DNA of 21,262 nt, from the IMG/VR virus record IMGVR_UViG_2703718838_000007. One strand, 5' to 3'. This document shows, in pieces, positions 7,569 through 21,262 of the stretch; position 1 is the first letter of the stretch; each line of letters begins with the position of its first letter. The position numbers were made by a program, and so were the translations under genes. This DNA is from a virus. Lineage: Duplodnaviria > Heunggongvirae > Uroviricota > Caudoviricetes. Below the pieces are notes generated by a model. That model saw only the letters and a list, made by a program, of their open reading frames with translations, was not told the origin of the DNA and ran no database searches.

Positions 7569-8615
7569 TTATGGTGCCGGTGCTGGTTCGGCGGCGGTAA
7601 TGCCTTCGATCAGACAGCCGAAGCCGTAATCTTCAACAACATAGGCATCATTTGACGAACTGTAGGTAGAGACACGGTTATATTCCGGCTCTTCCACAAT
7701 GCGGCGGCGGTGCGCACCTTCCTGCCAGTAAATCGACAGGTTTTCCCACGAAGTGATAAACATGCTGCCGTCAGGGAAGAAAGGCGCGATAAACGAAGGC
7801 AGGTTGCCGATCGTCTTACGCGATGCGATCAACTGACCGGCCAGCGCTTCGGAGTTCGGGTTATTGGTGCTTACGGCATTGATGATCGGGAACGAACGGC
7901 TAACCGTCAGGTTACGACCGGTGATCACCACCAGATTGGGCGAATCTTTGTACCACTCGTCCATCAGTGAGTTAACCGCGTCATAAACCAGCGAGTCGTA
8001 GTTACCGTAATCACCTTTAGCGATCACCTGGTTGGAATCGTCGCGGCTGGTCACGGTGATATCTTTCATGACACGTTGCGGCGCGTTTGCGCGGTACTGT
8101 TGCAGCCAGCCGATACCACAATCCTGCAAAAGCGGGTTGGCGTTGCGGTCGGACTTATCCGCGTAGCTGGTTCCGTTAAAGCCGATCATGATGCGATCAA
8201 GCGCGATACGCTGGATGATCTGATTGCTCAGTCGCTGCTGGAAATCCGGGAATTTAGCCCAGGCATCAAGCTGCGCATAAGAGGCGAAAGTATCCGCGTT
8301 CACCTTATTACAGGTGTATTTGTTCGAATCCAGCGCCGTGACGGAAACAGGCTGGCGGCGATCGGTGGTGGAATTATTGGTGCTGGAGATCGGCCCGCTC
8401 ACACCCAGACCGATTTTTTCACCGGACTGATCGTTAACGCCGTAGATATTAATCTTCTTCAACATTTCGGAAGACTGCTGCACCTTGTCTTCAAGCGTCT
8501 GCTCAACGCTCGGATCAATGCTGAACGCCTTTGTTACGTGGGATTTGTTGATGTGATTGAGTTCGGCCTGTCGCTCAAGATACGCATCAAACAATTCACG
8601 GGTAGAATTACGCAT
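7569..8615 (-). CDS. N: Major capsid protein gpN-like
   Basis: 348 aa, size and position as P2 gpN, immediately downstream of the scaffold gene. Confidence 0.85.
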   Translation of the reverse strand: MRNSTRELFDAYLERQAELNHINKSHVTKAFSIDPSVEQTLEDKVQQSSEMLKKINIYGVNDQSGEKIGLGVSGPISSTNNSTTDRRQPVSVTALDSNKYTCNKVNADTFASYAQLDAWAKFPDFQQRLSNQIIQRIALDRIMIGFNGTSYADKSDRNANPLLQDCGIGWLQQYRANAPQRVMKDITVTSRDDSNQVIAKGDYGNYDSLVYDAVNSLMDEWYKDSPNLVVITGRNLTVSRSFPIINAVSTNNPNSEALAGQLIASRKTIGNLPSFIAPFFPDGSMFITSWENLSIYWQEGAHRRRIVEEPEYNRVSTYSSSNDAYVVEDYGFGCLIEGITAAEPAPAP

Positions 8616-8655
8616 AGTTATTTTTCCTGTACTGTTCCTTCGTTACTGACGGCGA

Positions 8656-9501
8656 TCAGCAGTCAGCAAGCTGGGCGTTAGATTTTTCAGTTGCGCCGGT
8701 CGCTTCCGGGCGGCGGTATTTGCTGGCGTCCTGGGTAGAAAGCTGCGCTTTCATCTCGTCGAACTCAGAGCGCAACTTATCCACCGCTTCGGCGGTCTGT
8801 TTGTTCTTAAGCTGCCCTGCGCTCAGTTTTTCCATCTTGTCCAGCAATTCACCCTGGCTTTCCGCTACCAGTTCAACCGCCTGGCGAATATCACCATTTT
8901 CACGATCGAAGTGCTGGCGGGTTCCTGTCAGCATTTCCTTGATACGGGAAAAGAAATTCTTCCCGGTGTCGGACGCTGGCGGCTCTTCCTGCGCAAATTC
9001 AAGTGACGATTCCAGGGTTTCAGTGAAGAAGCATTCAGGTGCATAGTGACGCGCGGCCAGTGGGTTGGCGCTGGCGTTCTGGGTGCAAAACTTCATCATT
9101 TCGGTGCCCAGGCTCGCCGGGTTATCGGTACAGGCCAGCCCCATAAGGTAGGCTTTGCCGGTGTCAGCAAAGGACGGATGCACCTCAATGCTATGGTAGA
9201 TTTTTTGGCGTTTCTTCTTCAGTTCGACCAGTTCATCCGTGGCGTCCACCTTCACCAAAAGCGCCAACTTGCCCTTTAACTGGCCTTCGGCGATTTCTTC
9301 ATATTTCGTTTCAGCAACGTCGCCGTAAGCACGAAAATCACTGTTTGGAGACCAGCCTAAAATGTGTTCCAGATTGACGCGGGCGCCATAGACCTGGGGA
9401 TCGTACTGCTCGGCCATTTCGATAATGTGCTGACGTTCCAGCACGCGGCCATCACAGGTTGCGCCTTCGACTGCGACGCGGAAAAAATTTGTCATTGGCA
9501 T
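8656..9501 (-). CDS. O: Capsid scaffold protein gpO-like
   Basis: ATG at 9501 (MPMTNFFRVAVEGATCDGRV...) preceded by GGAG; resembles the P2 gpO N-terminus. The track's longer ORF uses an upstream non-ATG start. Confidence 0.8.
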   Translation of the reverse strand: MPMTNFFRVAVEGATCDGRVLERQHIIEMAEQYDPQVYGARVNLEHILGWSPNSDFRAYGDVAETKYEEIAEGQLKGKLALLVKVDATDELVELKKKRQKIYHSIEVHPSFADTGKAYLMGLACTDNPASLGTEMMKFCTQNASANPLAARHYAPECFFTETLESSLEFAQEEPPASDTGKNFFSRIKEMLTGTRQHFDRENGDIRQAVELVAESQGELLDKMEKLSAGQLKNKQTAEAVDKLRSEFDEMKAQLSTQDASKYRRPEATGATEKSNAQLADC

Positions 9502-9591
9502 GGTGACAAAGCTCCGGGTTGGTAAGCGATTGATATTAACCAGTGCCCCCAATCATTCCCTTTGCAGCAGGAAGGCGCAAAGCCTTCACTT

Positions 9592-9655: not shown

Positions 9656-11368
9656 ATGAATACAGCCGAAGACCTCAGCACAAAAGCCAAAAGCCTCTAC
9701 TGGCAGGCGTTTAGCATCACTCAGATTTCTAAGGAAATCGGGGTGAGCATTAACACGATCTACAGTTGGCGCCGCCGCTACGAATGGGATAAAGCCACCC
9801 CCATGCAGCGGGTGCAGGATCGCACACACGTTCGTTACCTGCGCCTGGTGGAAAAGGACGACAAAACCCCGAAGGACTTCAAAGAAATTGACCTGCTGGC
9901 GCGCCAGCTTGACCGCTTTGAACGGCATGAGCGACGCGACCAGGAGAAAGAGAAGAAGGCAAAGACCCCGAAAAACCATTTCACCGAAGAACAGATAACC
10001 CAGCTTCGCGCCCTGGTCTTTGATTCGCTATACGAGCATCAAAAACGCTGGTTCAAACAGTGGAACCGGCGTAACCGCTTTATACTCAAATCGCGCCAGA
10101 TTGGTGCCACCTGGTACTTTGCCCGCGAAGCGCTGTTGCGTGCGCTGGAAACCGGAAATAATCAGATATTCCTGTCAGCCAGCCGCGCCCAGGCGTTCCA
10201 GTTCAAGCGGTTCATTCAGAAGCTGGCAAGGGAAATAGGAGTAGAACTTAAGGGCGGTGATGCCATTGAGTTAAGCAACGGTGCGATCCTGTATTTTCTC
10301 GGCACCTCCGCCGCGACGGCCCAGAGCTACACCGGCGATCTGTACCTTGATGAAGCCTTCTGGATCAGTAATTTCATCAAACTGCGCTCAGTGGCCGCAG
10401 GCATGGCGACACAAAAAGGACTGCGCCGCACCTACTTTTCGACGCCTTCCAGTGAAGAACATGAAGCCTATCCTTTCTGGACTGGCGATCAGTTCAATAA
10501 AAACCGCCGCCGCTCCGATCGGGTGGATATCGACACCAGTTATAAGGCACTGAAAAACGGCAAGCTATGCGGGGATAACATCTGGCGCCAGATAGTCACG
10601 CTGGAAGACGCCGTGAAGCTCGGCTTCGATCTGGTTGATACCGATGAAATCCGTAACGAAAACTCCCCCGACGAATACGCCAACCTGTACGGCTGCATGT
10701 TCGTTAAAGCCGGGGAACGCGCCTTCGACTACAACGCAATTCTGGGCTGCGGCGTTGATGGCTACATGCCGGACGCGTGGCCGGACTGGAACCCGTTTGC
10801 ACCCCGCCCGCTGGGTAATCGCCCTGTCTGGGTTAGCTATGACCCCAACGGCAGCAGCGGCAAAGGCGACAGCGCCGGGCTGGTTGTGCTGGCCCCGCCA
10901 GCCGTGCCGGGTGGTAAGTTCCGCGCGGTAGAGCGCCACCAGTTACGCGGCATGGAGTACGAAGAGCAGGCCAATTTTATTAAAGAGATCACCACCCGCT
11001 ACAACGTGCAGCACATTGCTATCGACGGCACGGGGATCGGCGATGCGGTTTATCAACTGGTGATCAAGTTCTTCCCGCAGGCGGTTAAATACAACTATTC
11101 ACCGGTTCTTAAGCGGTCGATGGTGCTCAAAATGTTGATGGTCATTCGCGCCGGGCGCTTTGAGTTCGACGCCGGAATGATGGATCTCGCACAGTCGTTT
11201 ATGACCGTGCGTAAAGTCACCGCTGGCGGCGTTATTACTTACCAGTCAGATCGCGCCCGTGGCAGCAATCACGGCGATCTGGCATGGGCAACTATGCAGG
11301 GCATTTACAACGAACCGATCGGCGCGGAAGTGACCGGCGATAACGGCAGTTTTGTGGAGGAGTTTTAA
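9656..11368 (+). CDS. P: Terminase large subunit (ATPase) gpP-like
   Basis: 570 aa, ATG verified at 9656. Diverges from O; size and position match P2 gpP. Confidence 0.85.
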   Translation: MNTAEDLSTKAKSLYWQAFSITQISKEIGVSINTIYSWRRRYEWDKATPMQRVQDRTHVRYLRLVEKDDKTPKDFKEIDLLARQLDRFERHERRDQEKEKKAKTPKNHFTEEQITQLRALVFDSLYEHQKRWFKQWNRRNRFILKSRQIGATWYFAREALLRALETGNNQIFLSASRAQAFQFKRFIQKLAREIGVELKGGDAIELSNGAILYFLGTSAATAQSYTGDLYLDEAFWISNFIKLRSVAAGMATQKGLRRTYFSTPSSEEHEAYPFWTGDQFNKNRRRSDRVDIDTSYKALKNGKLCGDNIWRQIVTLEDAVKLGFDLVDTDEIRNENSPDEYANLYGCMFVKAGERAFDYNAILGCGVDGYMPDAWPDWNPFAPRPLGNRPVWVSYDPNGSSGKGDSAGLVVLAPPAVPGGKFRAVERHQLRGMEYEEQANFIKEITTRYNVQHIAIDGTGIGDAVYQLVIKFFPQAVKYNYSPVLKRSMVLKMLMVIRAGRFEFDAGMMDLAQSFMTVRKVTAGGVITYQSDRARGSNHGDLAWATMQGIYNEPIGAEVTGDNGSFVEEF

Positions 11369-12418
11369 TTGAGCGGCAAAAAGAAATTCAGGGCGCCAAC
11401 TGCTGCGCCAGCCAGCACGGCCAGCAACGCAGCCACCCCGCTGGAAAGCGTGGAATCTTTCAGCTTTGGCGACCCGATCGCAGTCAACGATCGCGCGTCT
11501 CTTATGGAGTGCCTCGAATGCCATAACAATGGCCGCTGGTATGAACCACCGATCAGCCCCTACGGGCTTGCGCGCATGTTCGACGTTGCCGCCTATCACC
11601 AGTCACCGCTGATATTTAAACGCAATGTTATCGCCAGTTGCTACATACCACACCCGCTATTGACCCGGCAGGAGTTCACCGCCTGGGTGCAGGATTATTT
11701 AATTTTCGGTAACTGTTACATGGAATGCCGCCGCAACCGACTCGGCCAGCCGATTGAACTGCGGCACAGCCAGGCGAAATATACGCGGCGCGGCATAGAC
11801 CCGGCTCAATTCTGGTTTGTTCCGCGCTACGTTGACGATCACGCGTTCGAACCGGGCAGCGTCTGCCAGATCAAGAACCCCAGCCCGCACCAGGAGATCT
11901 ACGGCGCGCCGGAATATCTGGCCGCGCTACAAAGCGCCATGCTGAACGGTGAAGCAACGGTGTTCCGCCGCAACTACTACATTAACGGCAGTCATGCGGG
12001 TGTGATCGTCTACCTCACTGACCCGGTGGCGAATAATAACGATGTGGAAAAGCTTAAGAAGTCGCTGAAAGATGCACGCGGAAACGGTGCTTTTAAAAAC
12101 CTGTTTGTCTACGCGGCGGGCGGGAAAAAAGACGGCCTGCAAATTATGCCGTTCAGCCAGGTGGCGGCTAAGGATGAGTTTACCGGCATCAAAGACGCCA
12201 CCCGCGACGACCTGTTAGCCGCGCACCGCGTGCCGCCCGTTCTGATGGGGGTAATGCCGAATAACTCCGGTGGCTTCGGCGACGTAGAGAAAGCGGCGAA
12301 GGTGTTTTCCATCAACGAACTGGCCCCGATACAAGAAAGCCTGAAAGAGTTAAACGACTGGCTGGGGATCGACGTGGTGCGCTTCAACCCTTACGCACTG
12401 TTGCAGGCAGCGATCTGA
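11369..12418 (+). CDS. Q: Portal protein gpQ-like
   Basis: 349 aa. TTG start directly after the P stop, preceded by GGAGGAG; last structural gene before cos, as in P2. Confidence 0.8.
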   Translation: MSGKKKFRAPTAAPASTASNAATPLESVESFSFGDPIAVNDRASLMECLECHNNGRWYEPPISPYGLARMFDVAAYHQSPLIFKRNVIASCYIPHPLLTRQEFTAWVQDYLIFGNCYMECRRNRLGQPIELRHSQAKYTRRGIDPAQFWFVPRYVDDHAFEPGSVCQIKNPSPHQEIYGAPEYLAALQSAMLNGEATVFRRNYYINGSHAGVIVYLTDPVANNNDVEKLKKSLKDARGNGAFKNLFVYAAGGKKDGLQIMPFSQVAAKDEFTGIKDATRDDLLAAHRVPPVLMGVMPNNSGGFGDVEKAAKVFSINELAPIQESLKELNDWLGIDVVRFNPYALLQAAI

Positions 12419-12647: not shown

Positions 12648-12782
12648 CGCACACAGAAACCCCGCTTTTTTGTGCAAATGTGCAAACCACCGGAAGGCCC
12701 GCCCCGTCTGGCCTTAGTTAAGAAAATGACTTTCGAAAAAATTGTGCATTCTCATGCAAGTTTATGCGCCATTTTTGCAGGT

Positions 12783-12807
12783 AAAAAAATCCCGCCGAAG
12801 CGGGATT
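12783..12807 (-). terminator. Intrinsic terminator ending the accessory cassette
   Basis: On the minus strand, a GAATCCCGC-TTCG-GCGGGATT hairpin followed by seven T, 14 nt after the stop of the 12822..13934 gene. Confidence 0.65.
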
Positions 12808-12821
12808 CATTGGTTATCGAA

Positions 12822-13934
12822 TTATGCAGATTTCATTCGATAAGCAGATAAAGAAACAACATTTTCGGTAGCGATTTCTGGGGCAAAATCTAACGAATTA
12901 TCGTTCGCTAACTCCGCTAACATAGCTGGAGTAATACACAAACGCTTGGCTAATGACTCAACATCAACTGACAGATCCGTTAAGAGAAACTTCATTGCCT
13001 TATGAAATAGCTCTGGCTTTTCATTAGGAATCAAATAATCTTCTTTTTCATCAATGGCTTCCCCCTTGCGCTTTAAACCGAAGAATGCCGTTTTATATTG
13101 GGCATCGGTTAAAAGAGAAAGCTGATGTGCTCTATAAATTGTTGCTGCCTTACTAACTTTCCACGTCAGTTTAAACTGACTTAGCCCCTGCCAGTCGATA
13201 CGACCGCCAATTGGGCGAGGAAAATATTTTGCCATCGCCGATCGGGGTAGAAGCAATGCTGATGCAAAACGGTTAGCTTGAGATTCAGTTACCCGATCCC
13301 CCGTTGAAATACCTTCGTGCAAAATCAAATGTGCAACTTCGTGAGCAATATCAAAACGCTGACGGCAAGGCGATTTTTTAGCCGTATTTCTTACAATGAA
13401 TGGCCGACTTAAAGGAACAGAAAGCGCATCCACATCATCAGAGACAGAATCGAAAGAAGTAACAAATGCTCCCAGCTTTTCAGCAAGACGAGTCATGTTG
13501 TCAATCGGCCCAAAACCTAATCCCCAATCAGCCCGGCATTTCTCAGCGGCTCTTTCTATGTCCTCTTGAGTATTTACTCTCAGTTCAGGAAATCTTACTG
13601 GCGGTAAATTCAAGTACTCATCAAAAACTTCAATGAGACGGCGATACAATTCAGCTTTAGCGAGCGTCGCCCACTTAGTAGCCATACGTGTTGAACTACG
13701 CTTGCGGAAGTGAACGATCTCTTCATTCACTGGAGATTGCTCTTGTACTGCGAAAAATTCAGGCGTGACCAGCAATACGGCAGCTAATTTATTCGCAAGC
13801 TCAGGAGTAGGCACAGCCGAGCCGGATTCCAGCCGCTGAATGTACTGGCGGGTCTTATCGACCCGCTCAGCTACTTGCTCCAGTGATAACTCGTGATACA
13901 GACGAGCCAATCGCAAATTAGAACCGTTAAACAC
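12822..13934 (-). CDS. Fused HTH_XRE / M78 (ImmA/IrrE, COG2856-type) zinc metallopeptidase with a ~100-aa C-terminal extension
   Basis: 370 aa. HTH-like LSLEQVAERVDKTRQYIQRLESG at residues ~15-40; HExxH zinc motif in DIAHEVAHLILHEG near residue 200. GTG start at 13934 with AGGTGA upstream (no in-frame ATG retains the HTH). Confidence 0.7.
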   Translation of the reverse strand: MFNGSNLRLARLYHELSLEQVAERVDKTRQYIQRLESGSAVPTPELANKLAAVLLVTPEFFAVQEQSPVNEEIVHFRKRSSTRMATKWATLAKAELYRRLIEVFDEYLNLPPVRFPELRVNTQEDIERAAEKCRADWGLGFGPIDNMTRLAEKLGAFVTSFDSVSDDVDALSVPLSRPFIVRNTAKKSPCRQRFDIAHEVAHLILHEGISTGDRVTESQANRFASALLLPRSAMAKYFPRPIGGRIDWQGLSQFKLTWKVSKAATIYRAHQLSLLTDAQYKTAFFGLKRKGEAIDEKEDYLIPNEKPELFHKAMKFLLTDLSVDVESLAKRLCITPAMLAELANDNSLDFAPEIATENVVSLSAYRMKSA

Positions 13935-13947
13935 TTTTCACCTACTA

Positions 13948-14541
13948 TTATCCGTTATCGCTTTTCTTTTCCTTTTCAGGAACAGAAGCGCTGATATCAT
14001 CCAGCTCAATCTTAACAGGTGCTGGCGGGGTATCGTCTATAGAATGCAGCACAGTTACCCGTTCTTCGCCATACGTCCATAAAGAGAGCATTTCTTCCAG
14101 CGCATTATAACCCGCAAAATGCACTCGCCCACCTTCACCTTCGAACTCTGGTTTCTCTACAACGAAGCGCCAAATCGTAGGGATTGTATCTTCTGATGCG
14201 AATAACTGATCAACACTATTCTTTCGGAAGAAGTTAGCCTTTTTCGGATTAGTCGGATCATCGCTAAAAGAACGGATTGGGATACCGCCAATAGTGATTG
14301 TGTAATCGTTATTGGGATTAGAAAGCCCTAACCAGTCGTATTTTTTTGACATGCACAGTTTGACGATTCGATTCTTCTGGCGTCCAAAAGTGCATGTTGC
14401 GCGGGTATAATTATCATCAAGCGAAGAAGACAAAAGCTCATGTGTGTCTTCCTGCACTTTAAGGAGTGCCTCCGCAATGATAGATAAGCGTTCTTCGGTT
14501 AACTGCGGATGAAACGTCCAAGGTAATGGGTAATTTTGCAT
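13948..14541 (-). CDS. Hypothetical protein, unrecognised partner of the HTH-peptidase
   Basis: 197 aa, ATG at 14541 with AAAGGAAAG upstream. No transmembrane segment or catalytic motif recognisable by eye. Stop lies 13 nt before the next start; region is AT-richer than flanks by eye. Confidence 0.6.
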   Translation of the reverse strand: MQNYPLPWTFHPQLTEERLSIIAEALLKVQEDTHELLSSSLDDNYTRATCTFGRQKNRIVKLCMSKKYDWLGLSNPNNDYTITIGGIPIRSFSDDPTNPKKANFFRKNSVDQLFASEDTIPTIWRFVVEKPEFEGEGGRVHFAGYNALEEMLSLWTYGEERVTVLHSIDDTPPAPVKIELDDISASVPEKEKKSDNG

Positions 14542-14559: not shown

Positions 14560-14618
14560 GTGCAAAAATCAAACTTTGTCAACCGGGATAATGGTGCAGA
14601 ATTTTGATTTTGTCAACT
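14560..14618 (-). promoter_or_regulatory. Promoter with two imperfect ~25-bp direct repeats (operator-like) upstream of the 197-aa gene
   Basis: Minus-strand repeats GTTGACAAA...TGCAC at 14594-14618 and 14560-14584. The distal one gives -35 TTGACA, 17-bp spacer, -10 CATTAT. Lies in the 75-bp gap after the A stop. Confidence 0.4.
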
Positions 14619-16977
14619 AACCCCTGTTAATTTTTACAGCCACTTTCCAACGATTGAGAAGCTCGTCAGATTTTTTCTTAACTGCCATTTTTTCAGATGC
14701 CAATTTATCTACCCCAGATGCTGCGCGGTTGCTGGAAACTAACCGCCCATTTTGCACGGTCAAAACGAGATCGCCGCACGCCACTGACGCACCGGCCATC
14801 ATCGATCTGACCATTCCGGCGCTGGCATCAATCCCACGCAGCGCCAGCAGTTCACTGATCTGCTGCTCTTTCACGGATAGCCCGGCCCTCTCTTCCCGTT
14901 CCGGTGGCCGTTTTTTACGCTTACTTCGCACATCGTTACTAAGCCGCTGCGCCAGTTCTCGCTTTTCCTGCCGTGAAAGCGCATCAAAATTCACCGTCTC
15001 GCCCACTTCGTGATCGGCATGTTCAAGACCGTCTGCACCTGTCGCGGGATCCCGCGTACAGTTATTGACAGAACTCCGAGGGGCGGCGCTGCCGCCTGAA
15101 AAACCAACGTCAACGGCCACACCGTCAGCGCTCTGGCGCTTCGGCACGATTTTGTATTGAGTGGTGCGGGTGAAGATCAAAGAGTCATTGCCCGTAATCG
15201 GGCAGTAAATACCAGTGATTCGCTGGACGTTATCACCGTAGGCGTTGCCGTTTTCAGTGGTTTCATAGTTCAGACGGATGCGCAGCTTATCGCGCTCAAC
15301 CAACGGGCCACCCTGGGCTAATACGTAGTTATCCCATTCGCCACCGTTAGCGGCCTGCCGGGCGGTTTCCAGTTCAGGGTGTAACACCAGTTCGCGATCG
15401 CCCAGGCGGCGAAGTTCCCGATATACCGTGACCGGCGCACCGCCGATCTGCTGAAACTGGCGAATAGCCCAGCGCGATGCCCACGCACTAACGCGGAGTG
15501 ACATTTCTTTCAGGTCTTCCCCAGTTTCGTCGTCCTTCTCACCATCGAGCGCGAAGCCGTCGATATTCTTCGAAATGTATTTCGCTATGTAGCCGGTTGC
15601 GCTGCCGTGGGCATCGTCGATCGGCACAACCTGAAAGCGGTTTTCCTGCGCTCCCGGTTCGTTGCCGTCTTCTTTCAGGGCATATTTACGGAAGATTTCG
15701 CGCGCCTGCTCGACGCATTCCGGGCGCATAAAAAGAAGTAAATGCCAGTGGGGTGTTGCATCGTGGTGCGGTTCGACCACGCGGAAACCAAAGACGCGGA
15801 TCCCTTTTCTCTTCCAAGCTGCGCGGGTTCTCGCCCAGACTTTGCAAAGATATTGCTGCGTCTCGCGCGGCGACGCGCCACAGTATTTATTATTGCGGCG
15901 CCCGTTATGCTGCATGGAGTGGTAACGGGAAGGTGCTGTCAGCGTGTAGAAATCACCGGCCAACCCTTCCAGCTTCGCCAGATCTTCAAAGCCGCGCATT
16001 CTCGTCATGAGTTCGCGGCGACGGTTGGCCGGATTGGCAACACTGCCAGCGACTTTATCGATCAGTGAAATGCGCTCGCCCGTGTCCTGGTCTTCCAGTT
16101 CCATAGCCTTGAGGTATTCACGGTTAGCCTTTTTCTGGGCCAGCCATTCCGTAAGGCACGGGGCGCTACTGTATGGGGAAGATTTTTTCTGGACGTATCC
16201 CGCTGCGATCATCAAATGCTCACGCCACCGGGCATGGATACGGCGCAGGCGGTTTAACCACCACTGCGGTGACTCAAGACGGAGAACCGCGCGTAACGCG
16301 TCCTCCGCTTCAAGTTCTTCATTGCAATATGCTGTCCAACCTGGGATCGGCGTTTTCATATGCACCACCAGCGACGCAATACGGCCATAGCCAGAAAGCG
16401 CCGCGAACTCAGGATCTCCGGTGCGTGCCAATTGGTGATCGGACTCGCGTATAAACTCGCTCGTAAAGATATCGGCAAGCGTATAAGCCAGTCTTTTTAA
16501 CTCTTTCTTCCCTGCCCAGAGCATACGGAACAGCTGATCGCGGATTGGCAGCAGAATGCCGGGCATCACAGTGTCAGGCTGGTAAACACTGTTCACGCTA
16601 TCAATTCGCGTTAATACGTGGCGCTCAAAGGTATTAACCAGCCAGTGATCTGCTGCTTTGCGGTCTTTCGCGTCCAGTGCATCCAGCTTCGCGGCAAAGT
16701 GGCGGCGGACATACTGCGGAAGTGAAGCCAGACGGCGACGCAGCAGCTTGCCGCGCTCCGGCTTTTCGTCTTCCGCTACCAGTTCACTGAACGGAATATG
16801 CTTACGCGTGCCGTCCGGCGTGAGATAGTCGAAACCATCCAGCCCCGGCGCTACATCAACGCCAATCGGCTGGTATGGTTTGTTCCCGCCATAAGCGTAA
16901 GGGATAGCATTGTCAGTGCTACCCGGATACGGTGGAGGTGGAGAAGGGGCGCGACGGCCACGGGTTTCCGTGGTCAT
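14617..16977 (-). CDS. A: Rolling-circle replication initiator (endonuclease) gpA-like
   Basis: 786 aa. HUH-like PHWHLLLF and a paired-tyrosine YIAKYISK motif; size and position match P2 gpA. Confidence 0.85.
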   Translation of the reverse strand: MTTETRGRRAPSPPPPYPGSTDNAIPYAYGGNKPYQPIGVDVAPGLDGFDYLTPDGTRKHIPFSELVAEDEKPERGKLLRRRLASLPQYVRRHFAAKLDALDAKDRKAADHWLVNTFERHVLTRIDSVNSVYQPDTVMPGILLPIRDQLFRMLWAGKKELKRLAYTLADIFTSEFIRESDHQLARTGDPEFAALSGYGRIASLVVHMKTPIPGWTAYCNEELEAEDALRAVLRLESPQWWLNRLRRIHARWREHLMIAAGYVQKKSSPYSSAPCLTEWLAQKKANREYLKAMELEDQDTGERISLIDKVAGSVANPANRRRELMTRMRGFEDLAKLEGLAGDFYTLTAPSRYHSMQHNGRRNNKYCGASPRETQQYLCKVWARTRAAWKRKGIRVFGFRVVEPHHDATPHWHLLLFMRPECVEQAREIFRKYALKEDGNEPGAQENRFQVVPIDDAHGSATGYIAKYISKNIDGFALDGEKDDETGEDLKEMSLRVSAWASRWAIRQFQQIGGAPVTVYRELRRLGDRELVLHPELETARQAANGGEWDNYVLAQGGPLVERDKLRIRLNYETTENGNAYGDNVQRITGIYCPITGNDSLIFTRTTQYKIVPKRQSADGVAVDVGFSGGSAAPRSSVNNCTRDPATGADGLEHADHEVGETVNFDALSRQEKRELAQRLSNDVRSKRKKRPPEREERAGLSVKEQQISELLALRGIDASAGMVRSMMAGASVACGDLVLTVQNGRLVSSNRAASGVDKLASEKMAVKKKSDELLNRWKVAVKINRG

Positions 16978-17153
16978 ATTTGAACTACATCCCCTACTTT
17001 AACGGCTTGGGCTTCCTCTTCTGATTTCTTCAGAATTGTGGTTATTGACTCCCTTCCATAAGCTGTTACTTTCGCCTCAACCAACCAATACGGCGCAATC
17101 TCGCCACGACTCACGCTTATGATTTCAACGATCCAGGCGTCTATAAGATTCAT
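16974..17153 (-). CDS. Small hypothetical protein (59 aa), not in the ORF track
   Basis: Hand-translated MNLIDAWIVEIISVSRGEIAPYWLVEAKVTAYGRESITTILKKSEEEAQAVKVGDVVQI. Its ATG overlaps the methyltransferase stop (TAATG) and its TGA overlaps the A start (ATGA). Confidence 0.5.
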   Translation of the reverse strand: MNLIDAWIVEIISVSRGEIAPYWLVEAKVTAYGRESITTILKKSEEEAQAVKVGDVVQI

Positions 17154-18124
17154 TAAAAAGCCTCCAGATCGTCAAACGTGCCCGCCGCAACCATCGCGTT
17201 GTAAGCCGCATCACCCATCACGGCGCCACAATCAGGGCAACCGCCGCCGTAACACCCGCAGCAGTCGCAGACAGGCAGCACGCCGATCACTTCTTTGGCC
17301 TTCTGGCGGTTGTCTTTGTCGGTGCTGACGGAACGTTGCACGCTGATTTCGTGCATCTTGAAGGGCTGATAAATCGCGCGGGTGGCTTCGGTGTCGCTGT
17401 TTGAAATGACGACCTTCACGCCATGCTTACGGTTAACTTCCAGCAGTGCCTGGACTAACTGGCGGTGGTTGTCTTCCGTGAATGGTTCGGTATGGTATTG
17501 GGTGAAGTCCGCTGTTTTGCTCTCAGGCAGATAAGGCGGATCGCAGTAAACGAGAACATCGCCACCCGTGACGACCTGTAAAGAACGCTGGAACGGCGCG
17601 CAAAGAAATATTGCCTTTGTATCGTTGGCCTTTTCGGCAAACAGTCGGATTTCATTTTCTGGAAAGTAGACGCTCTTATACTTGCCAAACGGCACGTTAA
17701 AGCCGGTCTTCCGACTGTATCGGCATAAGCCGTTATAACCGTGGCGATTCAGATACAGGAATTGAGCAGCGCGCATAATGCACGCCATTTCAGCGCCATA
17801 ACGCAACCCACCGCTTTTTACCGTACCCACCTGCTTATTGAACGCGGCGCGGACTTCGTTGTATCCCTGCGGGCTGTTCTTACTGTTGAACAGTTCGCGG
17901 GCCGCATCGATCACTAAGTCCGGGTAACGGGTGACTTCCCGATACAGGTTAATAAGATCCGGGTTGATATCAGCCAGCACATAGCGGCGGTATTCAGTCG
18001 CCAGAAATACCGATGCGCCGCCTACGAACGGTTCGATCAGGCAGTCGGCTTTAGGAAGATGCGGCAGCAGGTCAGGGAGGGCACGGGTTTTACCCCCTGC
18101 CCATTTGATGAACGGGCGGATCAT
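17153..18124 (-). CDS. Dam-like N6-adenine DNA methyltransferase with a Cys-rich C-terminal extension
   Basis: ATG at 18124 gives MIRPFIKWAGGK; motif I-like EPFVGGASVF and catalytic DPPY. C-terminus carries VCDCCGCYGGGCPDC. The track's longer ORF starts at an upstream non-ATG codon. Confidence 0.8.
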   Translation of the reverse strand: MIRPFIKWAGGKTRALPDLLPHLPKADCLIEPFVGGASVFLATEYRRYVLADINPDLINLYREVTRYPDLVIDAARELFNSKNSPQGYNEVRAAFNKQVGTVKSGGLRYGAEMACIMRAAQFLYLNRHGYNGLCRYSRKTGFNVPFGKYKSVYFPENEIRLFAEKANDTKAIFLCAPFQRSLQVVTGGDVLVYCDPPYLPESKTADFTQYHTEPFTEDNHRQLVQALLEVNRKHGVKVVISNSDTEATRAIYQPFKMHEISVQRSVSTDKDNRQKAKEVIGVLPVCDCCGCYGGGCPDCGAVMGDAAYNAMVAAGTFDDLEAF

Positions 18125-18125
18125 T

Positions 18126-18338
18126 TTACAGGACTCCGTAAGGGGAAGAAGGAACAACCGGACGCTGCAACGCCGTGGTAAGGCGCTGGCGCATGTCGTC
18201 GATAAAGCAGGAAACAGAGGGATCGTCAGAAGAAAGGGTTAACTCACCATCGCGGCGGGTTTTAATCGTCAACCCTTCATGCTCAACAGCAGGTAAGAGA
18301 ACGTGCAGGATGAAGTTATATTGATCGCGTTTAGTCAT
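18126..18338 (-). CDS. Small hypothetical early protein (70 aa from the ATG at 18338)
   Basis: ATG at 18338 preceded by TGAGG; stop one nt before the methyltransferase start. An alternative ATG at 18371 is possible. Confidence 0.4.
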   Translation of the reverse strand: MTKRDQYNFILHVLLPAVEHEGLTIKTRRDGELTLSSDDPSVSCFIDDMRQRLTTALQRPVVPSSPYGVL

Positions 18339-19692: not shown

Positions 19693-19891
19693 CCCGCATA
19701 AATCCACGTTTTTGACTCTCCTTAATCTGGCGGGATCTCATATGTAAGGCTCCGCCCGATTCTTCCTCTCCCTCATGTTTCATAACCATTTGTGCTAATC
19801 TCCCCGTTGGCGCTAGGCGCTTATTTCGGCTTGTAACTGCTTATATTGGCGGTTGCTCATGGTAGAGATTACCACCCTTAAGGAGAATGTT

Positions 19892-20212
19892 ATGGTAGAG
19901 ATCCCTACCCCGTCAAGCAGCGTGGGTGAAAAAATCAGAGCTATCAGGGATGCGGAGGGGTTAACAAGGCAGCAATTCTTTGAATTAACAGGAATACCTG
20001 CTGGCACGCAGAAGTATTACGAGACAGGAAGAGTGGAGAGTATTGGTAGCGATATCTTGCTTAAGATCACTCAGCATTCACGTTTCGCAAAATACACGCT
20101 CTGGCTTATGACAGATAAGACCGCCCCTCAAGCTGGTCAAATCGCACCGGCCCTCGCACACATTGGGCCAGAGTCAACTGGATCAGACCGCTCCGAGAAA
20201 CAAACTGGTTAA
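19892..20212 (+). CDS. C: Immunity repressor, P2 C-like
   Basis: ATG at 19892 with AAGGAG 6 nt upstream. C-terminal region (FAKYTLWLMTDKTAPQAGQIAPALAH) resembles P2 C as I recall it. The track's upstream start at 19853 has no RBS. Confidence 0.8.
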   Translation: MVEIPTPSSSVGEKIRAIRDAEGLTRQQFFELTGIPAGTQKYYETGRVESIGSDILLKITQHSRFAKYTLWLMTDKTAPQAGQIAPALAHIGPESTGSDRSEKQTG

Positions 20213-20281: not shown

Positions 20282-21262
20282 ATGTCGATTAAGAAGCTCG
20301 AAGGTGGTCAATATGAAGTGGACGTATGGCCGCGCGGACGTAACGGAAAACGTATCCGCAGGCGATTTGAGAAGAAACAAGAGGCAGTTCTTTTTGAGCG
20401 TTATGTATTAGCCAACGCCGACAAAAAAGAATGGCTGGGCGCGAGCGTTGACCGCCGCACCTTAAGCGAGTTGTTAGATACCTGGTGGCTGCTGTATGGA
20501 CAGACTCAGGAAAATGGCGAGATTGAAAAGCGGCACCTGAATAAAACAATCAGGGCGCTGGGTGATCCAGCCGTTAACCGACTGAACAAACGAATGATTG
20601 CACAGCACCGAAGCCAACGGCTGGAAGACGGTATCAGCGCAGCAACGATCAACCGGGATATTTACCGTTTGTCCGGGATGTTCAGCACGTTGATAAAGCT
20701 GGAAGAGTTCAGAAAGGAAAACCCCTGCAAGGGTCTGGAACCACTGAAAGAAGCGCCGCCAGCTATGACCTATCTCGCCAAATCAGAGATCAGCAGATTG
20801 CTGGATACTCTGACTGGCGATGATCGACGCGTAGCACTGCTATGCCTCAGCACTGGCGCTCGTTGGGGTGAAGGCAGCACACTGCGAGGTGAGCAGGTTA
20901 ACCACGGGCGCGTAACGTTCCTTAAGACCAAAAACGGGAAAAAGCGTACGGTTCCGATTTCGGAAGAACTGGAAAAAGAGATCAAGACCAGCGACACCGG
21001 GCCACTGTTCAAAGTTGACTATGAAAACTTCTGCGAACAGCTCAGACAGGTTAAGCCCGATTTACCACGCGGGCAGGCCACGCACGTGCTTCGGCATACG
21101 TTCGCAAGCTGGTTCATGATGAACGGTGGGAACATTATTGCGTTACAGCAAATTCTTGGGCACGCCAGCATACAACAGACGATGGTTTATGCTCACCTTG
21201 CACCTGATTACCTGCAACACGCAGTAACGTTAAACCCTCTCGGCGGTGGTCTGGCGGTGTGA
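20282..21262 (+). CDS. int: Tyrosine integrase, P2 Int-like
   Basis: 326 aa, GGAGGG RBS. C-terminal HVLRHTFAS...MVYAHLAP contains the His/Arg/Tyr catalytic pattern of tyrosine recombinases. Stop is the last codon of the window. Confidence 0.9.
   Translation: MSIKKLEGGQYEVDVWPRGRNGKRIRRRFEKKQEAVLFERYVLANADKKEWLGASVDRRTLSELLDTWWLLYGQTQENGEIEKRHLNKTIRALGDPAVNRLNKRMIAQHRSQRLEDGISAATINRDIYRLSGMFSTLIKLEEFRKENPCKGLEPLKEAPPAMTYLAKSEISRLLDTLTGDDRRVALLCLSTGARWGEGSTLRGEQVNHGRVTFLKTKNGKKRTVPISEELEKEIKTSDTGPLFKVDYENFCEQLRQVKPDLPRGQATHVLRHTFASWFMMNGGNIIALQQILGHASIQQTMVYAHLAPDYLQHAVTLNPLGGGLAV

Follow-up and report, generated by a model that had tools for sequence, protein, structure and literature searches.

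The fused XRE repressor and M78 metallopeptidase encoded by a P2-like prophage is the RmrA component of a RosmerTA toxin-antitoxin module

A gene at position 12822-13934 of a 21,262-nt stretch of viral DNA (IMG/VR record IMGVR_UViG_2703718838_000007; Caudoviricetes; the whole of this stretch is referred to below as the window) encodes a protein in which a helix-turn-helix (HTH) DNA-binding domain and an M78-type zinc peptidase reside on the same polypeptide chain. In an earlier note on this DNA, such a fusion was considered a departure from the ImmR/ImmA- and CapH/CapP-type modules, cis-acting or autoproteolytic control was envisioned as its consequence, and a sensing or partner-binding role was proposed for a C-terminal domain of about 100 amino acids. 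The locus hence raises the questions of which system the protein belongs to, what its peptidase might act upon, and what its C-terminal extension contributes. The gene is rmrA of the already catalogued RosmerTA toxin-antitoxin (TA)/anti-phage module, and it does not represent a new architecture. Very probably, it serves as the antitoxin and the transcriptional regulator of a two-gene RosmerTA operon that possesses its own promoter-operator region and terminator, and that is carried by a P2-like prophage as a cargo of low guanine-plus-cytosine (GC) content.

Identity and domains of the fused protein

The PADLOC RmrA profile PDLC03943 matches the window protein from end to end (expectation value, E, 9.1e-206; residues 1-369 on positions 1-369 of a model of 370), and thirteen further PADLOC RmrA models match it with E values between 1e-33 and 1e-71. 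The protein also matches PHROG 2439, while the product of the preceding gene, rmrT, matches PHROG 5786. The sequence features by which RosmerTA systems are recognized are thus found here: a full-length RmrA profile match, an adjoining and co-oriented rmrT gene in one operon, and an HTH domain combined with an intact zinc peptidase. It was this pairing with an upstream gene for a 197-aa toxin, and with it the identity of the module, that the earlier note had missed. The name RosmerTA stems from the work of Millman et al. (bioRxiv 10.1101/2022.05.11.491447), and Ernits et al. (PMC10440598) described RmrA as a hub antitoxin that is combined with many different RmrT partners and often carries a small N-terminal HTH.

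The gene and the main segments of its product are listed below; the mean pairwise identities refer to 65 RmrA/RmrT pairs, which were drawn from the window, from 79 loci of mostly species-representative genomes and from six further loci.

12822..13934 (including the stop codon), minus strand: rmrA, antitoxin/regulator, 370 aa (open reading frame (ORF), PADLOC, Pfam, PHROG 2439)
13749..13934, minus strand: XRE-type HTH, RmrA residues 1-62 (mean pairwise identity 0.48), recognition helix at about residues 29-37 (TRQYIQRLE)
13704..13712, minus strand: motif H75-F76-R77 in the linker (residues 63-83; mean pairwise identity 0.43) that connects the HTH to the peptidase body
13128..13484, minus strand: Peptidase_M78 (ImmA/IrrE) domain assigned by Pfam, RmrA residues 151-269 (mean pairwise identity of the M78 core 0.64)
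13329..13343, minus strand: zinc-binding/catalytic motif HEVAH (H198-E199-x-x-H202), read from the sequence and formed by invariant columns
13284-13286, minus strand: E217, the probable third zinc ligand, in the context ESQANRFA

The rmrA gene starts with a GTG codon that is preceded, 5-6 nt upstream, by the Shine-Dalgarno sequence AGGTGA. All aligned homologs begin with MFNG or MFKG; this shared N-terminus and the ribosome-binding site make the assigned start credible. Two domains are recognized by Pfam: residues 7-61 match HTH_3 (E 2.5e-13), and residues 151-269 match Peptidase_M78 (E 4.1e-17), a domain that is followed by a further 101 residues. An AlphaFold2 model built on an alignment of homologs (predicted local distance difference test (pLDDT) score 90.9; predicted template modelling (pTM) score 0.87) matched the M78 folds of CapP and IrrE and the HTH folds of CapH, ImmR and DdrO in a fold search, and in sequence searches of the PDB the peptidase part matched only CapP and IrrE. 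The presence of an HTH, an M78 peptidase and a C-terminal extension on one chain, as it had been read from the DNA, is consequently borne out by Pfam, the conserved zinc site and the model; the two findings that would have spoken against it, an N-terminus other than an HTH or a fold other than M78, were looked for, and the Pfam and fold matches gave an HTH and an M78 fold instead. A weak match of the RmrA profile was also obtained with PDB entry 9vzy, a 393-aa 'HTH cro/C1-type domain-containing protein' (E 0.0054; residues 179-284 versus 197-315); this entry may represent a recently solved HTH-M78 fusion, and a literature search for an associated paper found none.

The zinc site deserves particular attention. 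None of the residues H198, E199, H202, H206 and E217 varies among 43 homologs, each of them is conserved to at least 95% in the 65 proteins of the sample, and the M78 signature (HExxH and a downstream glutamate in an E-x-x-A-N-x-F-A context) is present. A zinc site that is complete and invariant across the family argues for catalysis, and the M78 domain is therefore best viewed as a probably competent zinc peptidase. Non-proteolytic M78-like domains that make a protein a ligand-sensing regulator have a precedent in the mycobacterial PrpR/RamB proteins. An equivalent role for RmrA is highly unlikely in light of this conserved site and of a partner gene that encodes a toxin and not a metabolic operon.

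The fusion itself is not unusual. In more than half of all cases, the COG2856 domain occurs as a fusion with an Xre HTH, and many of these fusions adjoin toxins (Makarova et al. 2009, PMC2701414); the commonness of Xre-peptidase fusions has likewise been stated in the description of PD-lambda-2 (Vassallo et al., PMC9519451). About 585 RmrA homologs were recovered in our analysis, and all of them are fused proteins of about 370 aa with an identical domain order. The exact RmrA protein of the window recurs on over 800 contigs, whose annotations name chiefly Salmonella enterica and other Enterobacteriaceae. A megablast search with the rmrTA module against a phage collection yielded no match, and relatives were found there at the protein level only.

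The toxin partner, the operators and the prophage setting

The first gene of the operon encodes the partner of RmrA:

13948..14541, minus strand: rmrT, toxin partner, 197 aa, first gene of the operon (PADLOC RmrT PDLC03929, E 1.6e-94, positions 1-196 of 198)

The gap between rmrT and rmrA measures 13 nt, and one promoter and one terminator serve both genes. RmrT has no Pfam family and no NCBIfam match. A gene of the same RmrT family (hhalign probability 100%) precedes rmrA in nearly all related loci, about 85 in number, and its most conserved motif is D42-D-N-Y45-T46-R47. The T46 residue of the window protein corresponds to the site of the T46S suppressor in the toxin of E. coli E101.

This correspondence connects the window to published genetics. 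The RmrA homolog of E. coli UMNF18 is WP_000481765.1, and this accession is the one given by Rousset et al. for E101_02644, the 'antidote' of a prophage TA module whose presence renders clpP indispensable in E. coli E101; the suppressors had lost the prophage by excision or carried the T46S substitution in the upstream protein, and clpP became essential in K-12 as well once the module had been moved there (bioRxiv 10.1101/2020.05.25.114553). With the proteins of this WP_000481765.1 / WP_001179381.1 cluster, the window RmrA shares about 77% and the window RmrT about 63% identity. The pneumococcal Rosmer pair RipA/RipB (Spr1630/Spr1629) is ClpX-dependent, and its toxin acts on the sliding clamp (PMC9519441). 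In Pectobacteriaceae, rmrA is essential in transposon sequencing (Tn-seq), and clpX is essential only in strains that carry a Rosmer module; for the OLC-716 system of E. coli, a Delta-rmrA construct could not be transformed.

These data also bear on the reverse assignment of roles, in which RmrA would be a toxic protease effector and the upstream protein its inhibitor, as in PD-lambda-2B/A. There, the over-expressed Xre-peptidase fusion (PD-lambda-2B) is toxic and the upstream gene rescues the cells (PMC9519451), and CapP has been named 'CapP toxin' by its PDB depositors. Such a reversal is extremely unlikely for RmrA, given that Delta-rmrA was not obtainable, that rmrA is essential in Tn-seq, and that mutations suppressing the clpP phenotype fall in the upstream gene. 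Furthermore, full-length RmrA persists as an orphan in Photorhabdus (loci L021, L023, L025 and L026) and in Salmonella houtenae (L093), where RmrT is either absent or reduced to a remnant of 41-49 aa; retention of RmrA where RmrT has decayed is the pattern expected if RmrA is a harmless antitoxin.

RmrA as the antitoxin of this operon would, in addition, regulate it. The regulatory elements of rmrTA are the following:

14588..14616, minus strand: sigma-70-type promoter, -35 TTGACA, 17-nt spacer, -10 CATTAT (10 of 12 consensus matches)
14594..14616, minus strand: operator O1, TTGACAAA-N10-TGCAC, overlapping the -35 region and the spacer
14560..14582, minus strand: operator O2, TTGACAAA-N10-TGCAC, at about the transcription start
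12787..12808, minus strand: intrinsic terminator that closes rmrTA, 9-bp stem and T-run

Each operator unit is 23 nt long, and O2 sits 34 nt downstream of O1. Among five enterobacterial loci, a lambdoid one included, the boxes, a CAnnAT -10 region and TTGACA are invariant, while the intervening bases vary. Two TTGACAA-like boxes spaced by 32-36 nt are present in 52 of 62 distinct rmrT upstream regions but in only four of 1440 control windows. The right half-site varies with RmrA residues 33-34 in the recognition helix (Q/N-R with GCAC, H-K with GCAA or GCCA, and S-Q with GGAAC), a covariation that is confounded by phylogeny. Tandem promoters as the sole explanation for the two TTGACA boxes were rejected, since a -10 region is conserved at the first box only, and since conservation includes the AAA extension as well as the right half-sites, which in addition change together with the helix. 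Binding of the protein to the repeat at 14560-14618, which had been put forward in the earlier note as an experiment, is thus well supported by comparative evidence in the form of operator conservation and recognition-helix covariation, and we infer that the HTH of RmrA binds the two putative operators. Since these overlap the promoter, the XRE domain would auto-repress the operon when bound there.

Two tandem copies of TGTGCAAA are located at 12671-12686 on the plus strand (TTTGCACATTTGCACA on the minus strand), about 100 nt past the rmrA terminator; each is the reverse complement of the operator right half TTTGCAC(A). The GGCGAGGCGGGGGAATGAG stretch beside them resembles the P2 cos end. These repeats and GGCGAGGCGGGGGAATGAG may form a packaging signal, or they may represent a chance match.

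The window is a P2-like prophage, as is evident from its GPA replication protein, portal, terminase, GPO, P2 capsid, integrase and 119-aa repressor. The genes around rmrTA are:

7569-9552: capsid and scaffold genes
9656-11368, plus strand: terminase
11369-12418, plus strand: portal
14617-16977, minus strand: GPA replication protein
16974-17153, minus strand: 59-aa ORF that overlaps the start of gene A by 4 nt (ATGA)
17153-18157, minus strand: D12-class N6-adenine (Dam-type) methyltransferase, upstream of the 59-aa ORF
19853-20212: small HTH repressor of 119 aa, separate from RmrA
20282-21262: integrase

The rmrTA pair stands in place of old/tin, with the replication gene A on one side and the cos/portal (Q) end on the other, and this gene A-to-cos/portal position is the defence hotspot of P2 (Rousset et al. 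2022, PMC9122126). The GC content of the pair is 0.45-0.47, versus about 0.56 in the flanks. Prophages integrated beside cpxP share an 11-kb core with the window at 97-98% identity, and shorter segments at 91-99%; the early region differs among these otherwise 97-98% identical prophages, in that TerB, DUF4406, an Rv2179c-like exonuclease and a second C5 methylase are present in varying combinations. Related rmrTA pairs occupy the equivalent hotspot in several P2-like prophages of E. coli, and pairs with identical operators are also found at ordinary chromosomal sites, in plasmid-like regions and in lambdoid prophages; rmrTA moves as a self-contained cassette. The prophage that carries the pair in E. 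coli UMNF18 is lambdoid; there, rmrTA is flanked on one side by a ParA gene with a hok/gef pseudogene and on the other by the nin/Q region. In E. coli CFIAFB20190157, the pair shares the P2 hotspot with a ParM partition pair.

This setting is relevant for the idea that RmrA is a lysogeny switch, an ImmR/ImmA-type repressor and anti-repressor that would govern the induction of the P2-like prophage. HTH/M78 pairs or fusions are found at the immunity region of many Gram-positive phages, and several phage records label RmrA homologs as cI-like repressors. We nevertheless give this idea virtually no credence: the prophage is equipped with a repressor/cox/integrase region of its own at 19.5-21.3 kb, rmrTA possesses its own promoter and terminator and sits in a late-side cargo hotspot, and the operators recur in the lambdoid, plasmid-like and chromosomal sites mentioned above, while no further copy of the motif was found elsewhere in the window.

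Neutralization of RmrT, the peptidase and the C-terminal tail

With RmrA taken as antitoxin and auto-repressor, the operation of the module can be envisioned as follows. RmrA would keep the co-translated RmrT harmless and, judging from the genetics of the E101 ortholog and of pneumococcal RipAB, would require ClpX/ClpP of the host for this task; most likely, it would do so by promoting the ClpXP-dependent removal of RmrT. The M78 domain could act on the linker of RmrA, on RmrT or on a phage protein. By analogy with validated Rosmer systems, phage infection would cause the neutralization to fail, leaving RmrT free to halt or kill the cell in an abortive infection.

Cleavage of RmrA by its own peptidase, as suggested in the earlier note, finds a candidate site in the linker. 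H75, F76 and R77, located just after the HTH, are each at least 95% conserved in the 65 proteins, with SFR replacing HFR at the equivalent place in the RmrA verified by Millman et al.; this motif is a candidate, unproven cleavage or docking site. In ImmA/ImmR, IrrE/DdrO and CapP/CapH, the XRE repressor is cut in the region after the HTH. RmrA carries both an HTH and an intact peptidase on one chain, and one may envision a LexA-like self-cleaving repressor: DNA damage or infection would activate the M78 domain, the linker would be cut in cis or between subunits, and rmrTA would be de-repressed and/or the toxin freed. Self-cleavage of RmrA is a hypothesis already present in the literature (PMC2701414, with a LexA-like logic; PMC10440598). 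It would be compatible with the antitoxin role of RmrA, and we consider it possible but rather unlikely: residue 75 is predicted to be beta-bridged to residue 56 of the HTH domain in the confident AlphaFold2 model (pTM 0.87), and self-cleavage alone leaves the requirement for ClpX/ClpP unexplained.

The 101 residues beyond the Pfam domain agree in length with the extra domain of about 100 aa described in the earlier note, but together with the end of the peptidase they fall into three parts, the first of which, conserved also at residues 270-305 past the Pfam domain, is continuous with the peptidase body:

13020..13214, minus strand: RmrA residues 241-305, conserved helical sub-domain that continues the peptidase body (modelled helices; mean pairwise identity 0.57)
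12900..13019, minus strand: RmrA residues 306-345, small three-helix unit (helices 309-320, 325-331 and 336-343; mean pairwise identity 0.29)
12825..12899, minus strand: RmrA residues 346-370, flexible tail ending in NVVSLSAYRMKSA (class 2; pLDDT 46-56; mean pairwise identity 0.19)

Conserved positions in the first part are W248, K255, SKAA261-264, Y267, R268, L272, Y280, L287, E296, D299 and E305. Pfam scans with the C-terminal 124 and 66 residues found no family at E values up to 10, and no alpha/beta (GAF-like) C-terminal domain is seen in the model, in which the extension is all-helical and followed by the tail. A BLASTP alignment with the verified RmrA of E. coli OLC-716 spans residues 1-302 only (31% identity, E 3e-39). 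The extension of RmrA is a helical continuation of the peptidase (to about residue 305), a variable three-helix unit and a flexible tail, and it contains no separate sensor domain.

A role of the extension in toxin binding is unsupported. Among the 65 pairs, the partial correlation between the divergence of RmrA segments and that of RmrT (controlling for the M78 core) is lowest for residues 306-345 (0.15) and the tail (0.19), versus 0.48 for the HTH, so that the C-terminal divergence tracks that of the toxin least of all segments, although saturation of fast-evolving segments could mask a signal. The tails do, however, carry terminal motifs. Class-1 tails, with L-x-[LIVM]-[VI] within five residues of the C-terminus, were found in 69 of 216 distinct RmrA proteins versus two of 547 control ORFs; a stricter pattern, [RK].?P.{1,2}L.[LIVM][VI], matched 47 of the 216 and none of the 547 (consensus (R/K)(R/K)P-x-L-(R/Y)-L-V-x). 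Class-2 tails, N-V-[VI]-S-[LM]-x-x-Y-R-x-K-x-A, were found in 102 of the RmrA proteins and in two of the control ORFs. The tail of the window protein (12825-12866, minus strand; residues ~357-370) is of class 2, NVVSLSAYRMKSA, and lies outside the pattern of the SspB ClpX-tethering (XB) peptide, RGGRPALRVVK (PMC3983244). This peptide matches the strict class-1 pattern, as does the verified OLC-716 RmrA (...IRPSHLRLVK); overall, an XB-like tail is present in about a third of the relatives in addition to this verified protein. Each class occurs with unrelated toxins, and both classes occur within one RmrA clade, which suggests that they are interchangeable. A class-2 tail is also found in the RmrA-like protein of Escherichia phage Tritos, whose upstream gene differs. 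The recurrence of the same motifs beside unrelated toxins points to a toxin-independent partner, so that of the sensing or partner-binding function ascribed to the extension in the earlier note, the notion of a partner survives for the tail, and a partnership with the toxin finds no support.

ClpX would be an attractive candidate for this partner. We put forward the unproven hypothesis that the tail is a ClpX-recognition element, a suggestion that is weaker for the class-2 tail of the window. In its full form, which we regard as doubtful, class-1 tails would mimic the SspB XB tether (R-P-x-L-R-L/V-V-K-COOH), the NVVSL...YR(x)K(x)A tails would be functionally equivalent, and RmrA would combine the functions of an auto-repressor, a zinc peptidase and a ClpXP adaptor. 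No paper that links RmrA tails to ClpX recognition was found in the literature search.

The adaptor function can also be considered by itself. RmrA would then resemble a type VI-like antitoxin, as in SocA-SocB: it would tether RmrT to the N-domain of ClpX via its tail, perhaps after processing by the M78 domain, RmrT would be continuously degraded, and infection would interrupt its delivery. ClpX/ClpP are essential only where a Rosmer module is present, class-1 tails are strongly enriched in RmrA over the control ORFs and fit both SspB XB and the OLC-716 protein, the tail is predicted to follow a low-pLDDT linker as in SspB, and both tail classes accompany unrelated toxins. All of this is consistent with an adaptor. 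Yet NVVSLSAYRMKSA belongs to the other class and is not known to bear more than a loose likeness to any ClpX signal, and the E101 ortholog with the ClpP phenotype carries a class-2 tail as well. Moreover, the competence read-out of RipA release in pneumococcus followed the depletion of ClpX, whereas the effect of ClpP on competence was almost RipA-independent, so that simple degradation fits less well. We therefore treat the adaptor as a tentative proposal that may well turn out to be wrong.

Several points weigh against the proposed antitoxin role, in addition to the phylogenetic confounding of the covariation between operators and recognition helices. In the module of the window, each of the proposed activities (toxicity, neutralization, DNA binding, proteolysis and phage defence) has been inferred. 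The fusion protein of PD-lambda-2 is itself the toxic component (PMC9519451), and roles in this class of proteins are accordingly not uniform. The tail of the window protein is of a class unlike the SspB peptide. Finally, an anti-phage effect is known from the Rosmer systems of E. coli OLC-716 and Gordonia phage Kita, whose toxins are unrelated to that of the window, and the literature searched documents no phage defence by the RmrT family present here.

As a find, the module matters little; it is a catalogued defence/TA system in a known prophage hotspot. Its remaining value is mechanistic and concerns the manner in which Rosmer antitoxins neutralize unrelated toxins, their need for ClpXP, and the substrate of the peptidase. 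Three handles are available for such studies: the defined putative operators, the invariant HFR motif of the linker, and the toxin-independent tail motifs, one class of which resembles a ClpX tether. If the tail were indeed a ClpX-recognition element, it would explain why Rosmer modules make ClpX/ClpP essential.

Comparison with known systems

The RosmerTA system described by Millman et al. (2022), which PADLOC and DefenseFinder list as 'Rosmer', shares with the window the toxin-first operon of two genes and an antitoxin of about 370 aa that consists of an XRE domain, a zinc peptidase and a C-terminal extension. The toxins differ: the verified RmrT of OLC-716 (239 aa) is unrelated to that of the window (hhalign probability 0.2%), as is the membrane-depolarizing toxin of Gordonia phage Kita. 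The tails differ as well, with class 2 in the window protein and an LRLVK-type tail in the verified OLC-716 RmrA. The proteins E101_02645/E101_02644 of E. coli belong to the same families, share T46 and have the same operators as the window, but they reside in a lambdoid prophage, and the dependence on ClpP was measured in the E101 copy. In RipA/RipB of S. pneumoniae, the antitoxin has the same XRE and ImmA-like architecture; NF052239, the spr1629-family model, aligns to residues 1-344 of the window RmrA with 158.2 bits versus a cut-off of 335, and the protein is not a member of this equivalog. The RipA toxin is a binder of DnaN, and a relation between it and the window RmrT was not detected with NCBIfam.

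PD-lambda-2 (Vassallo et al. 2022) differs from rmrTA in that it comprises three genes, has a HigB-like partner and contains a fusion that is itself toxic, and PADLOC reports no PD-lambda-2 match at the window. With the type VI TA system SocAB and with SspB, RmrA has in common that ClpXP would be needed to hold a toxin down, and many relatives of RmrA end in an XB-like peptide; SocA and SspB are not related to RmrA in sequence or fold, and the tail of the window protein lies outside the XB pattern.

The two-protein systems ImmR/ImmA (ICEBs1), DdrO/IrrE (Deinococcus) and CapH/CapP (cyclic-oligonucleotide-based anti-phage signalling system, CBASS) have the HTH and M78 folds, the zinc site and the logic of an XRE repressor combined with a metallopeptidase in common with RmrA, but their repressor and protease are encoded by separate genes, whereas RmrA is a single chain. 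IrrE possesses an alpha/beta GAF-like C-terminal domain, and CapP presumably carries one likewise; in RmrA, the all-helical extension and the tail take its place. The controlled target differs too: it is one toxin in the case of RmrA, while the two-protein systems govern a CBASS operon, a regulon for DNA repair or the excision genes of an element.

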